40,011 bases of DNA, from positions 1 through 40,011 of IMG/VR virus record IMGVR_UViG_3300017700_000402; one strand, given 5' to 3'. The position numbers and the translations under genes are program-made. Shown one piece after another: positions 29,138-40,011 of this stretch. The stretch comes from a virus. Taxonomy: Duplodnaviria > Caudoviricetes. The stretch's first letter is position 1. Each line of letters starts with the position of its first letter. The notes beneath the pieces are model-generated. The model saw only the letters and a list, made by a program, of their open reading frames with translations, was not told where the DNA came from and did not search any database.

Positions 29138-29395
29138 CTATATCCCTTCTCTGTTTATGGGTGGGGTTGGGAGTGAGGCGTAAAAGGATTTGTTGAAATC
29201 CAGAGCCGCGAGGTATGGGGATTTGCCGAAGCCCGAAACTCCATCCTGCAAATTCGCCCCGAACAGCCAGCAATACTCACTGCCGTCAAGCGTCAATGAT
29301 GGCCTCAGAACGGCAATAAGATTGACCTCGGCGGCCTCGATAATTGCGCCCTCATAGACGCCTTGAACGTAGCCAGAAACTTCAGGTCTGCTCAT
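29138..29395 (-). CDS. Hypothetical phage protein
   Basis: DG..YC.LFG.NLQDGV.GFG.SP..A..DF motif. Confidence 0.75.
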   Translation of the reverse strand: MSRPEVSGYVQGVYEGAIIEAAEVNLIAVLRPSLTLDGSEYCWLFGANLQDGVSGFGKSPYLAALDFNKSFYASLPTPPINREGI

Positions 29396-29535
29396 TTCGC
29401 ATTCTCCCTCTTATCCAGATATTCCCGTATTGCCAGCTTGGTTACGTCAGAGACAGTTCTGTTATCTCTTGCCGCCTCTAGTGATAGACGGTGTTTAAGA
29501 TCGGCTGGGAGGCGAAGGTCAAGGCGGGCGGTCAT
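29392..29535 (-). CDS. Ribbon-helix-helix (Arc/CopG-like) DNA-binding protein, 47 aa
   Basis: MTARLDLRLPADLKHRLSLEAARDNRTVSDVTKLAIREYL; ATGA-coupled on both sides. Confidence 0.85.
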   Translation of the reverse strand: MTARLDLRLPADLKHRLSLEAARDNRTVSDVTKLAIREYLDKRENAK

Positions 29536-35719: not shown

Positions 35720-35832
35720 TTCCTCGTCTCCCAGGTTGTTCGATGACCTAAGATTGCATACCCTACTTTGTCGCGCAAGGGGGTTGACTAAATATTTCCA
35801 TCAGGTACATTGGACGGCAGAAAGGAGACGGC
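35720..35832. promoter_or_regulatory. Divergent early promoters
   Basis: Rightward TTGACT(35784-35789)-16bp-TACATT; leftward TTGCGC-17bp-AATCTT. Confidence 0.6.
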
Positions 35833-36021
35833 ATGAAATTTGATTTGCAACGTGAAATGCGCCTGTATGGACGGGGTACGGATATCGCCAAAGCTCTTGG
35901 CATAACCCGCGCCGCAGTGAGTGCCATGTACACTGGCAAGAAGCGCCCGACTGATACACTCCTAGCCCTTCTTGGCTGGGAACGGGTCGTAACGGAAACA
36001 TTTAAGAGGGCTAAGAAATGA
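35833..36021 (+). CDS. Cro-like HTH protein
   Basis: TDIAKALGITRAAVSAMYTGKKRP; AAGGAG SD. Confidence 0.85.
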   Translation: MKFDLQREMRLYGRGTDIAKALGITRAAVSAMYTGKKRPTDTLLALLGWERVVTETFKRAKK

Positions 36022-37291: not shown

Positions 37292-37618
37292 TTGCCCGGA
37301 AAGAGAATGATGATGACCAAGTGGACTGCAAAGAAGTTGATTGAGATTTGCGAACAGTCTGTCGTTCCCGTCTCAAAATGGAGCAACCGCGATAGCCCGG
37401 AAGCTCAAAAGCAAATCGGCGAAGCTTGGGTTTATCTCAAGTCGGGCTGCAAATTCCGCATCCGAGACGATATGGGCGGCGGTGAAGGAACAATTTGGGT
37501 TGAAATCACCCACCCGAACTTCGGCACCTTTGATTGGGATGGCGGTGAGGAGGAGGAGACGTTTTATCTTCCAACGCCTGAACGTCTCGCAAGCCGCTCT
37601 GGTGGAGATTGGTACTAA
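37292..37618 (+). CDS. Hypothetical phage protein
   Basis: W.NRDS..AQ.Q.G...C.F; FYLPT..RL....G.DWY motif. Confidence 0.75.
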   Translation: MPGKRMMMTKWTAKKLIEICEQSVVPVSKWSNRDSPEAQKQIGEAWVYLKSGCKFRIRDDMGGGEGTIWVEITHPNFGTFDWDGGEEEETFYLPTPERLASRSGGDWY

Positions 37619-37630
37619 CCACCAAACGGA

Positions 37631-37659
37631 TCAGGCCCCAGTGATGAACCGGGGCCTGA
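37631..37659. terminator. Hairpin between convergent genes
   Basis: TCAGGCCCC-11nt-GGGGCCTGA; weak U-tract. Confidence 0.5.
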
Positions 37660-37693
37660 CACAGGGGAGGAGGGAGAATGAGGCCGAGGAACC

Positions 37694-37894
37694 TCAACAA
37701 GAGTTGTATCGTGTTGGAGTGGTAGAAGCAAGAGGGCTTTGGAATGAAGGCTTGGAGAGGCGTTCGGCCATTATGGCTCTGGATATATTCTCTATGCGAT
37801 CTTCCCTGGTTTGAATGCCGTTCTGTGGGATTTTATCCAATGCAGCCGCTGCCTTTTCCCAAATATCCTGCGGAATATCGCGTGGTTTAGTCAA
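37694..37894 (-). CDS. Hypothetical protein
   Basis: GGAGGGG SD; P.DIPQDIWE.A...ISRAIMAER. Confidence 0.65.
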   Translation of the reverse strand: MTKPRDIPQDIWEKAAAALDKIPQNGIQTREDRIENISRAIMAERLSKPSFQSPLASTTPTRYNSC

Positions 37895-37909
37895 TCATCC
37901 CCTCCATCT

Positions 37910-38116
37910 TTAGGTGTCGTTTTCGATTGCTTTTAGCGCAGCTCGGAAATGGCGGACGCGCATAACCTCGCCAACGGCATATCGGGGAGACATTGCAGCG
38001 TACAGATCGTTATCGTGCTCATCTGCGCCAATGTCCCAAAGCGCCACTTGCGAGAATGGCTGTAGCGCGGCCTCAAGTTCTGCAATCCTAGCTTCTAGTT
38101 TGGCAACGTCGGTCAT
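37910..38116 (-). CDS. Hypothetical phage protein
   Basis: RIAELEAAL.PF motif; GAGG SD. Confidence 0.7.
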   Translation of the reverse strand: MTDVAKLEARIAELEAALQPFSQVALWDIGADEHDNDLYAAMSPRYAVGEVMRVRHFRAALKAIENDT

Positions 38117-38235
38117 TTCTTTTCCTCTTTTTTCTTAGCTCTATATTTCCGCATGTATTCTGTGAAATAGCCGGGGCGGTGGCGGTTTAGGCTGCGGTCC
38201 TTGGGGGGATTTTTGCCCCCCTTAAACTCACTCAC
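38113..38235 (-). CDS. Basic micropeptide B (40 aa, MSEFKGGKNPPKDRSLNRHRPGYFTEYMRKYRAKKKEEKK)
   Basis: GTGA/ATGA coupling; paralog of 1518-1652. Confidence 0.75.
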   Translation of the reverse strand: MSEFKGGKNPPKDRSLNRHRPGYFTEYMRKYRAKKKEEKK

Positions 38236-38315
38236 TTTTCGTGATCCAGAATGAAGCCGACCATTGCAAGCCAAAACGGGGTGGTGATGATGATCAGTTC
38301 AATTGCTGCGGTCAT
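38232..38315 (-). CDS. Single-TM micropeptide (27 aa, MTAAIELIIITTPFWLAMVGFILDHEK)
   Basis: GAGGAG SD; coupled to micropeptide B. Confidence 0.65.
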   Translation of the reverse strand: MTAAIELIIITTPFWLAMVGFILDHEK

Positions 38316-38341
38316 TTTTCTCTCCTCGGCCTAGTGGCCCT

Positions 38342-38485
38342 CTACTTGAGGGCCACACTGAAAACCAGCATCATAACGCTATTCTTGATTGGGCCTTCCA
38401 CGAGGCACTGTGCAGCTACTTCTTTGAATGTCAGGCCGCTCAGTTCGCTGTAGGCTTTGATTGCTTCGTTGATTGCGGTGGTCAT
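38342..38485 (-). CDS. Hypothetical protein (47 aa, MTTAINEAIKAY...)
   Basis: ACGGAGAGA SD; first gene after promoter copy B. Confidence 0.7.
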   Translation of the reverse strand: MTTAINEAIKAYSELSGLTFKEVAAQCLVEGPIKNSVMMLVFSVALK

Positions 38486-38555
38486 TTCGTTCTCTCCGTG
38501 TTTCCTGAGTATGAGTAAACACCATTCTGAGCACGTTGTAAACACCTATTTGCAT
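38486..38555 (-). promoter_or_regulatory. Promoter copy B (homolog of 1251-1317)
   Basis: ATGCAAATAGGTGTTTACA...ATGGTGTTTAC...ACGGAGAGA. Confidence 0.65.
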
Positions 38556-38565
38556 TTATTTTGCA

Positions 38566-38604
38566 GAAAGAGAAACCCCCTCACAGAATGAACTGCAAGG
38601 GGGC
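38566..38604 (-). terminator. Minus-strand rho-independent terminator
   Basis: GCCCCCTTGCAG-ttcatt-CTGTGAGGGGGT then TTCTCTTTC; the G-U pairs form only on the minus strand. Confidence 0.75.
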
Positions 38605-38606
38605 TA

Positions 38607-38635
38607 TTGCCGAGCGGGCTAGGAAGGGGTAGGGT
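38607..38635 (+). promoter_or_regulatory. Promoter of the replication operon
   Basis: TTGCCG-17bp-TAGGGT. Confidence 0.55.
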
Positions 38636-38695
38636 TGAAGTTGAGCAGGCCGATTGTGGTGATCGCCTACTCCCAAAAGCTAAGGACAATAGCTA

Positions 38696-38749
38696 ATGCA
38701 AATGCACAATACCCAAGCCCGTACTCCGTTGCAAGTGGCAACGTCATGA
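38696..38749 (+). CDS. Leader peptide (17 aa, MQMHNTQARTPLQVATS) coupled to rep
   Basis: AAGGA SD at 38682-38686; stop overlaps the rep ATG (ATGA); the rep ATG has no SD of its own. Confidence 0.55.
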   Translation: MQMHNTQARTPLQVATS

Positions 38750-39600
38750 GTGATATGCCGTGGGTTAGGTTTTTCCCCTCAGACTGGTTAGGCGGCACTC
38801 GTTCATTGAGCGCGGCTGAAACCGGAATTTACATCACTCTGGTGGCGACGATGTACGAGCGCAGTGCGCCGATATCGTATGACCATGCCAAGCTTGCGCG
38901 TCTGTGCGGGGCTTCCAATTCCACGTTCAAAGCGGCTCTGGCGTCCCTCATTGAGGACGGCAAAATCATCGAAACGCCAGAGGGGCTTTGGAATGAAAGA
39001 GTGCAAAAAGAGGTCGTCTACCGTCAGGAAAAGTCAGAGGTAGGTTCTCGGGCAGCTAAAGTGAAATGGGATAGAAAGCGCAATGAAATCAATGAAACGA
39101 CTGATGCGCCCGCAATGCCCTCGCTATCCGACCGCAATGCTAACCAGAAGCCAGAGTTAGAACCAGAAGCCAGAAAGAAAGAAGATAGTAAGAAAGAAGT
39201 TATTTTGTCGCCTAAGGCTCCAAAGCCGCAAAATGGCTCACGCCTATCTGCGGAATGGGCTTTGCCTAAAGCGTGGGGGGAATGGGCACTTGAGAACGTT
39301 GCAGGATCGACGGTTGAAACCATCCGTTCCCAAGCCGAGCAATTTCGGGATTACTGGGTAGGCAAGGCAGGGGCAGGAGCCCGTAAGGCCGATTGGGAGG
39401 CAACGTGGCGTAATTGGATGCGGAACGCCAAGATCAGCCCCCGCGCCTCCCCAGCCCAAACGGGACAACCCCGAAACATATTTGAGGCATCCACCCAACT
39501 CTTGAACGAACTGAAAGCAGCAGAAAATGGCACCCGATCCGACCAGATTGATAACCGCCCTGAACCGCCTATTCGCTACCTTGCCGCTTCCGAACGCTAG
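38746..39600 (+). CDS. Replication initiator, DUF1376/YdaU family
   Basis: PWVRFFPSDWL.GT..LS..E.G.YI.L...MY, LARLCG, L.N.R; C-terminal RL..EW.LP..W, FRDYW, K.DW.ATWRNW.R. Confidence 0.85.
   Translation: MSDMPWVRFFPSDWLGGTRSLSAAETGIYITLVATMYERSAPISYDHAKLARLCGASNSTFKAALASLIEDGKIIETPEGLWNERVQKEVVYRQEKSEVGSRAAKVKWDRKRNEINETTDAPAMPSLSDRNANQKPELEPEARKKEDSKKEVILSPKAPKPQNGSRLSAEWALPKAWGEWALENVAGSTVETIRSQAEQFRDYWVGKAGAGARKADWEATWRNWMRNAKISPRASPAQTGQPRNIFEASTQLLNELKAAENGTRSDQIDNRPEPPIRYLAASER
39075..39210. repeat. Iteron-like repeats / candidate origin within rep
   Basis: caatgaaa x2, ccgcaatgc x2 (39110, 39132), aaccagaagccaga x2 (39142, 39161), then a purine/AT-rich tract. Confidence 0.55.
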
Positions 39601-40011
39601 CGCCGATCCGAGGGAAGCCCTGCGGGTCTATTGCGAGGCATGTTCCAACTACTCCGCAGACGATGTTGAACTAGCCGTAAAGCAGTTTATTGAGGGAACG
39701 GTAAAGGGCATCAATGCAGCCTTTGCGCCAACCGCCCCGCAGTTCGTAAGCCAGATGCGGGCGAACCTGGAATACACCGGCAAGATCAGGGCCGGGAAAA
39801 CTGCACTGCTGGAGCAGTTCAAGGAACAGGAGCGCGACGAGGAATGGGCGACTAAGCGAACGCCAGAGGTCAAGGCCCACGTAAAGAGGCTTGTTGAGGC
39901 TTTCGTAAACAATACGGACGATAAGAAGAAGCCAAAGACGGCTGAGCAGATCGCGCTGGATAAGGAAATGCTGCGCAGGCATGACCAACTCTTTGCCGAT
40001 CAGTTCATGGA
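39527..40011 (+). CDS. Protein downstream of rep (possible helicase loader/replication accessory); continues across the junction to 232
   Basis: MAPDPTRLITALNRLF...Y.EA.......V..AV..F..G......FAPT.PQF; position typical of a loader. Confidence 0.7.
   Translation, partial: MAPDPTRLITALNRLFATLPLPNASADPREALRVYCEACSNYSADDVELAVKQFIEGTVKGINAAFAPTAPQFVSQMRANLEYTGKIRAGKTALLEQFKEQERDEEWATKRTPEVKAHVKRLVEAFVNNTDDKKKPKTAEQIALDKEMLRRHDQLFADQFM
39889..40011. repeat. Terminal direct repeat copy 2
   Basis: Identical to 1-123. Confidence 0.95.

Follow-up and report, generated by a model that had tools for sequence, protein, structure and literature searches.

We have analyzed a compact control cassette that lies directly in front of the putative replication initiator gene (rep) of a tailed phage. 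The window, by which we mean the whole stretch of DNA analyzed (40,011 nt), is a complete 40-kb virus record (IMG/VR IMGVR_UViG_3300017700_000402) with a 123-nt terminal repeat. The cassette consists of a 17-codon leader ORF whose stop overlaps the rep start, a promoter candidate on the opposite strand within that leader, and an intrinsic terminator upstream at which the predicted antisense RNA would end. Judged from sequence, it is a real, conserved and portable control element, in which the antisense RNA itself is predicted, and it is the conservation in relatives that carries the case. In the reading that we prefer, to which we assign a probability of about 0.6, the cassette would follow the logic of the CopA/tap/repA system of IncFII plasmids, with leader coupling and an antisense RNA together limiting the initiator. 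The motifs listed by an initial annotation of this region (promoters, hairpins, Shine-Dalgarno (SD) sequence, leader ORF, ATGA overlap and terminator) are all present in the DNA, and their coordinates are given below.

Terminase, portal, capsid, ejection and tail families, identified by a PHROG family search, point to the window being the genome of a podovirus-like phage. The homologs of rep are mostly rhizobial, and for this reason the host is probably an alphaproteobacterium. The rep gene (38746-39600, plus strand) encodes a 284-residue protein of the DUF1376/YdaU family (Pfam PF07120, E 1.6e-15) that also falls in the PHROG primosomal and replication-initiation families. Its start is fixed at 38746, as the homologs open with M-x-x-MPW. 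The N-terminal part is predicted to form a winged helix with structural matches of a generic kind (best Z 8.8, rmsd 2.4, 66 residues); a Foldseek search with the structure found nothing that reached E 0.001, and a comparison of the protein with PDB sequences gave nothing below 0.2. A repeat scan found short direct repeats and an A-rich run within the gene (39104-39194, plus strand), which by analogy to lambda O are possible origin iterons. The family, the N-terminal winged helix and the in-gene repeats are those of phage replication initiators (lambda O-like, DUF1376/YdaU), and the product is likely to be one, a role assigned from its family. The next gene (about 197 aa) begins at 39527, overlaps rep by 74 nt and runs across the terminal repeat. 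It has no family, although a weak homolog also follows a rep-like gene in another record (G003); its place is possibly that of a helicase loader.

Small leftward genes (37694-38488) stand between rep and the main rightward early genes, so that rep needs a promoter of its own. An inverted repeat (37626-37660) lies between the converging rightward and leftward blocks; it is likely to be a two-way terminator, which would shield rep against the main early promoter. As the initial annotation had noted, the window has no integrase or CI: the 80 ORFs scanned include no integrase, CI-type repressor, partition ATPase (no ParA/ParB) or CII-family match, and no unexplained ORF has the size of an integrase, a CI repressor or a partition ATPase. 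Many of the small ORFs have no family. A Cro-sized HTH gene is present at 35833, directly followed by a gene for a GapR-like DNA-binding protein (PF10073; 36018-36275, plus strand). Near the left operon end, a 47-residue Arc/CopG-like ribbon-helix-helix gene (29395-29535, minus strand) is a candidate transcriptional partner.

The leader ORF (38696-38749, plus strand) shares an ATGA with the rep start. Its SD sequence (AGGA) is displayed in the 7-nt loop (AGGACAA) of a small stem, AGCTA/TAGCT (38678-38694, plus strand), which follows a C/A-rich linker. The rep start is enclosed in a stem on the same strand (38722-38752), whose core CGTTGC/GCAACG (38727-38743) is extended over the ATG by folding. 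Opening the rep initiation region would cost 13.9 kcal/mol, versus 6.3 kcal/mol for that of the leader, and the calculated SD strengths are -4.8 kcal/mol for the leader, -1.9 kcal/mol for the rep ATG and -8.6 kcal/mol for an in-frame TTG at 38635. The rep ATG thus has almost no SD, as had been remarked before. Because this ATG is nearly devoid of an SD and lies in a stem, while the leader SD is open and the leader stop overlaps it, rep is probably coupled to the leader. Two sense promoter candidates lie upstream: TTGCCG-17-TAGGGT (38607-38635, plus strand; rank 44 genome-wide on a weighted consensus score), with a predicted start near 38642, and TTGCAG-17-CAGAAT (38561-38589, plus strand; rank 76). 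A standard promoter scan reported neither the sense promoter nor the antisense promoter described below. The rightward promoter candidates at 35720-35833 and 38595-38612 are both preceded by GCAAGGGGG, which suggests either an operator common to both or -35 boxes in a back-to-back context.

The ATGA overlap by itself is generic, and starts of the form ATG-AGT yield an ATGA stop automatically. It says little on its own because most rep homologs are coupled to a long upstream gene: at 16 of 17 close homolog loci, a set with several near-duplicates, the rep start lies no more than 5 nt from the end of a gene of at least 60 codons, and in phiLM21 this gene is a DnaB-like helicase. Coupling to an upstream frame is therefore the usual state in the rep family. 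In a wider screen of 113 distinct rep loci a long upstream ORF was found at 65, a rough count in which the starts of C-terminal-only matches were guessed. What is unusual in the window is that a 17-codon leader with its own SD would do the coupling in place of the long upstream gene of most homologs. The sequence of the leader peptide looks unimportant, since codons 2-4 are altered in one relative (X10, below) and the conserved residues lie under promoter boxes.

On the minus strand, the promoter candidate TTGCAA-17-TATTGT lies inside the leader ORF (38706-38734; -35 box 38734-38729, -10 box 38711-38706), with a predicted start near 38699 and rank 18 genome-wide on the weighted consensus score. 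The intrinsic terminator (38566-38605, minus strand) has a 13-bp stem (38605-38574), a 6-nt loop and a U-rich tail to 38566, the predicted 3' end. The RNA so defined (38566-38699, minus strand; ~130-134 nt) would contain in order a hairpin complementary to the SD hairpin, hairpin A (38643-38672), an unpaired linker and the terminator, and would overlap the predicted mRNA over its first ~58 nt. The terminator had been described as strand-specific, and this is borne out: it folds with -21.9 kcal/mol on the minus strand and -14.9 kcal/mol on the plus strand, a difference of 7 kcal/mol due to three G-U pairs that become A-C mismatches on the plus strand. It is the strongest of 174 terminator-like rows genome-wide (duplicates included). 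Hairpin A is biased likewise (-13.1 versus -10.1 kcal/mol), with complete pairing on the minus strand and one mismatch on the plus strand. The predicted 134-nt RNA has a folding z score of -3.68, matched by 0 of 200 shuffles, against -1.11 for its complement; minus its terminator the z score is only -1.64. The first minus-strand genes upstream of the terminator are ~30 kb off, round the circle, so no minus-strand gene needs a terminator here. The leader is the only plus-strand gene beneath the predicted RNA, and a terminator scan found no sense-strand terminator in the leader. A long-range pairing of 38602-38608 with 38687-38693, which occurs in folds of a longer mRNA, was rejected, as the stem letters differ in relatives.

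To gauge how often such motifs arise by chance, the 257-nt gap was submitted to 1500 dinucleotide shuffles, for which the real values served as thresholds. The terminator was equalled in 7 shuffles, the antisense promoter in 161, the sense promoter in 274, the SD with a coupled leader ORF in 50, and a terminator with a correctly placed promoter in a single one. The terminator and the combination thus exceed chance, whereas each promoter singly is within chance and, taken alone, only moderate.

Relatives of the cassette were sought among ten listed runs, eight of which were compared with this region, all as DNA contigs; the runs had been found with this same stretch. The matching contigs are 151-239 nt long at a depth of 2-5, and the stem pairs were read by hand; for X4 and X10 most individual differences are unlisted and the exact -10 and -35 letters are not readable. 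The stretch with the leader ORF and the antisense promoter is conserved (86-98% identity) ahead of three different kinds of start, namely the rep of the window (X2, X6, X7), MSSAPFMQLYVA (X3, X10), a start typical of another DUF1376 subfamily, and MSERGVFAVD (X4), which we take to be that of another initiator family. X7 is identical to the window over 38629-38779, and X6 has five changes over 38656-38883, all five in rep and none listed in the leader. X3 matches 38696-38751 with 1 change in 56 nt and continues into MSSAPFMQLYVA.

The more diverged relatives bear on the SD hairpin. X2 spans 38641-38820. Differences cluster at 38671-38695, with seven substitutions listed there and four gap letters, and the stem is kept: an A-T pair becomes C-G, a new outer pair appears, and two inserted bases pair with the right arm. 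The X2 leader ORF has one listed change, which is synonymous; two further differences near the contig ends are unlisted. In X4 (38695-38744, 7 changes in 50) the stem is GCGA/TCGC round an AGGA loop, with T-A changed to G-C relative to the window. Although one base is missing from the spacing, the stop of the leader frame still falls at rep codon 2-3 (8-nt overlap); the gene that follows starts with MSERGVFAVD. Two X10 contigs match from the -10 box (38706) onward with 4 changes each (4 in 46), and the leader diverges over codons 1-3; upstream a stem AGCG/CGCT, again with T-A changed to G-C, surrounds a GGA loop with the ATG at the same distance, and one of the two contigs leads into the same MSSAPFMQLYVA-type DUF1376 subfamily. 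All four SD stems come after a C/A-rich unpaired stretch, and the shape of the stem is kept with two-sided base changes in X2, X4 and X10, that is, in three other runs. The sequence of hairpin A is kept in X2 and X7 and partly in X6. One further X2 match (record 2), 36 nt long with 5 differences and lacking the right arm, was put down to chance.

Promoter and terminator were never found on one piece in any relative examined. The terminator was found once only among them, as an exact 31-nt copy (window 38575-38605) in a 39-kb contig (X3 record 5). TTGACG boxes stand on both sides of this copy, and one of its flanks is similar to the right flank of the window hairpin in reverse, so that an inversion or relocation of the hairpin is possible.

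Additional evidence comes from a database protein, P0012, which is 79% identical to rep over the matched half and bears a 52-residue N-terminal extension. This extension back-translates to the antisense boxes at their 17-nt spacing, which occurred in 1 of 20000 shuffles, although the peptide differs; it is also compatible with the sense boxes at the matching place (536 of 20000 shuffles). Over the whole leader it scores 72, versus 25 +/- 9 and a maximum of 55 in 60 shuffles. The extension of P0234 does not fit the cassette, and with the N-terminal extensions of P0001 and P0012 as queries nothing but these proteins themselves was retrieved. The hairpin before the rep ATG, to which attention had been drawn earlier, exists in the window and is probably not conserved in this form, as the P0012 extension cannot encode its right arm.

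Given the anatomy observed, transcription, coupling and pairing in our preferred reading would proceed as follows. An mRNA beginning at ~38642 would expose the leader SD in its open loop, and ribosomes translating the 17 codons would open the stem that covers the rep start, terminate at the ATGA and reinitiate. The leader would thereby replace the long upstream gene that couples rep in most homologs. The counter-promoter in the leader would make an RNA whose 5' hairpin mirrors the SD hairpin; its anti-SD loop would meet the SD loop, and a duplex of ~58 nt may then hide the SD and the start codon. The initiator would be made in a burst after entry and damped as the antisense RNA grows with genome number, a negative feedback like that of plasmid R1. 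The earlier proposal of an antisense RNA combined with a leader has gained strand-specific folding, covariation in the SD hairpin, conservation of the leader ORF with its promoter, and a layout matching IncFII, while the RNA is still a prediction.

Antisense-plus-leader control of an initiator is textbook knowledge in plasmids. The closest parallel is the CopA/tap/repA region of IncFII plasmid R1, where, in the available part of the description (PMC12361487), a leader ORF overlaps the initiator, a counter-transcribed RNA with its promoter in the leader ends upstream, and the initiator is controlled via leader translation, which for the window is only predicted. The window has a short leader ORF with its own SD and a stop overlapping the initiator start, and, as sequence motifs only, a counter-promoter in the leader ORF and a terminator upstream. 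The geometry of pMccB17, as given in the portion of PMC10912980 that was accessible, is nearly that of the window: copA, 93 nt long, stops 12 nt short of a leader of 24 codons, and this leader has an overlap of 8 nt with repA, as is also the case in the X4 relative. In contrast to IncFII, the predicted RNA is ~130 nt rather than 93 and would lie directly over the SD and start of the leader; in this tailed phage a phage DUF1376 (PF07120) protein takes the place of IncFII RepA as initiator; and no copB is adjacent, the nearest ribbon-helix-helix gene (29395-29535) being 9 kb off. A cmscan of 37500-40011 to E 5 for CopA homology gave one unrelated weak row. The cassette thus would work like IncFII logic without being an IncFII member, in view of the lacking Rfam match, the other initiator and the absence of an adjacent copB.

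The initial annotation had invoked the logic of both R1 and IncI. The IncFII-type layout upholds the former, and the pseudoknot version is not borne out. According to the accessible text of PMC8125031 and PMC10724649, IncI repY/repZ and IncL/M repB/repA resemble the window in having a leader peptide, an antisense RNA (in the window a predicted one) and also a stem over the initiator start, but need an activating pseudoknot beside the rep SD. In the window, the loop of hairpin A finds its best complement in 6 nt at 38705, which lie within the antisense -10 box, 40 nt ahead of the rep start; the remaining loops have none. The Rhizobiales repABC plasmids share with the window, as predicted for it here, an alphaproteobacterial setting, a ctRNA just upstream of the initiator and an in-gene origin; in the parts of PMC3155836 and PMC10194956 available, the ctRNA is 55-59 nt long and induces a terminator in the repC leader. 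The window differs in its ~130-nt predicted RNA, its leader ORF, and the lack of a RepC family match and of a sense-strand terminator.

Among phages, lambda pO/oop is comparable in position and targets cII, as had been pointed out. In the text of PMC3985674 that is available, lambda has a leftward promoter beside the initiator start, a short RNA with its own terminator, and origin-like repeats inside the initiator gene. There, oop is antisense to cII and is without control of O, whereas the predicted RNA of the window overlaps the leader of the initiator itself. The window has no cII or lysogeny module, and its predicted RNA is not antisense to a cII 3' end. In our search of the literature, mostly outside subscription journals, no leader-plus-antisense control of a tailed-phage initiator was found. 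If real, the cassette, which is small and self-contained, would give phages a protein-free feedback on replication and possibly allow them, in the absence of CI, to enter carrier states or exclude superinfecting phages.

The lambda case leads to the alternative that survives best, one that we nevertheless hold to be unlikely: the antisense promoter may act as a pO-like convergent promoter, which affects the rep promoter by collision or occlusion, with the RNA a by-product and the leader merely coupling. Converging polymerases would tune transcription through the origin; possible iterons lie inside rep, and the predicted transcript crosses the sense promoter (38607-38635) before it stops. As far as the accessible part of PMC3985674 goes, pO, located beside the O start, reduces transcription from pR and has an effect on replication, and oop RNA does not act on the O-P mRNA; an antisense RNA in the matching position thus leaves the initiator uncontrolled, a point against our preferred reading. 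The SD hairpin could also be kept for translation alone. Against this stands the fact that the predicted RNA starts on the leader start codon and covers the SD, that for both hairpin A and the terminator the antisense strand gives the better pairing, and that the SD stem varies in its letters and keeps its shape, which fits an RNA recognition loop.

A bolder form of RNA control, of which we are rather doubtful, is a portable switch giving plasmid-style copy control, a self-limiting episome, and an RNA-based incompatibility that silences incoming kin. The cassette would then be swapped before unrelated initiators, and the variable letters of the SD hairpin would define incompatibility groups. 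The episomal or carrier state that the initial annotation had thought possible found no positive evidence: the idea was based solely on the missing integrase and CI, and the 80 ORFs contain neither partition genes nor CI. The partition or repressor module of phage-plasmids and extrachromosomal prophages is accordingly absent among these ORFs.

It is improbable that the leader is the whole story, that is, a minimal adaptor providing the coupling for a rep gene which has become the first of its operon, with chance promoter boxes and a terminator that shields the leftward operon. Coupling at close homolog loci is in line with this, as are the antisense promoter score reached in the shuffles and the report, in the part of PMC13285730 accessible, that coupling uORFs are common in S. 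meliloti. However, conservation within the leader falls on its promoter part, with X10 matching from the -10 box on, and P0012 has both boxes at the 17-nt spacing with a different peptide. Neither this adaptor nor a convergent promoter is exclusive of the IncFII-like reading.

There is very little chance that TTGCAA-17-TATTGT is instead the early promoter of the leftward genes, with the hairpins and terminator as an attenuator or antiterminator leader. It does point at those genes, outranks the candidate adjoining them (18 versus 92), and has two hairpins ahead of the terminator. However, the leftward genes have their own candidate promoter beyond the terminator (TTTACA-17-TTTACT, 38514-38546, minus strand), the 38-nt stretch containing it recurs before another leftward gene without the cassette (X6 record 4), and no alternative antiterminator fold dominates. 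A 9-bp direct repeat (38515-38523 and 38538-38546, 23 bp apart) lies on both boxes of this candidate, is kept in X6, and is possibly a binding site. Least probable of all is that rep is a 321-residue form made from TTG 38635, on an mRNA from 38561-38589 with the strong GGAAGGGG site and an incidental short ORF: the frame is open from 38635, its SD is stronger than that of the leader or of rep, and P0012 likewise has an open upstream frame, but the homologs begin at M-x-x-MPW, a net +2 indel in the SD hairpin of X2 breaks the frame, and the two extensions are unlike as protein, neither with database relatives. This start had been named in the initial annotation as a possible objection, and its strong SD is a point against our preferred reading.

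Further copies of the cassette were sought in several collections. A pattern scan of IMG/VR for the cassette gave 0 matches; three more gave 42, 41 and 18, none before a rep-like gene or flanked by the cassette. The 7 matches of a GTDB pattern scan were all unrelated, a DNA search of genomes of one alphaproteobacterial order was negative (0 of 401), and blastn of the leader against phage and plasmid collections gave weak chance rows only. The cassette is also absent from 15 virus records picked by capsid similarity; pieces of 8 of these 15 were mapped, and two rep-like genes (G003, G004) follow ordinary genes. A comparison of upstream regions, as had been proposed, thus gave a divided answer: the leader ORF is kept in X2, X3, X4 and X10 and the SD stem in X2, X4 and X10, and the cassette is found in none of the 113 screened rep loci except the window's own copy.

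Other structures were seen in front of rep-like genes. At four loci (L017, L028, L039, L140) the upstream 250 nt contain strong minus-strand terminator-like hairpins, in the position of lambda oop; the rep starts in L028 and L039 were guessed. A different, sense-strand motif (GGCTAG, a hairpin, GAAAAG and CCNGCC) precedes distant DUF1376-type genes at 15 of 142 rep loci (L009, L011, L013, L014, L016, L019, L020, L024, L037, L045, L046, L049, L052, L067, L076), mostly 10-150 nt ahead of the rep-like gene. The gathering cut-off of Rfam int-alpA (RF02996) was passed by 0 of 20 loci; the motif in L013 scores 35.7 bits (gathering 35.8, E 3.9e-6), and it appears to be a variant of int-alpA associated with phage initiators.
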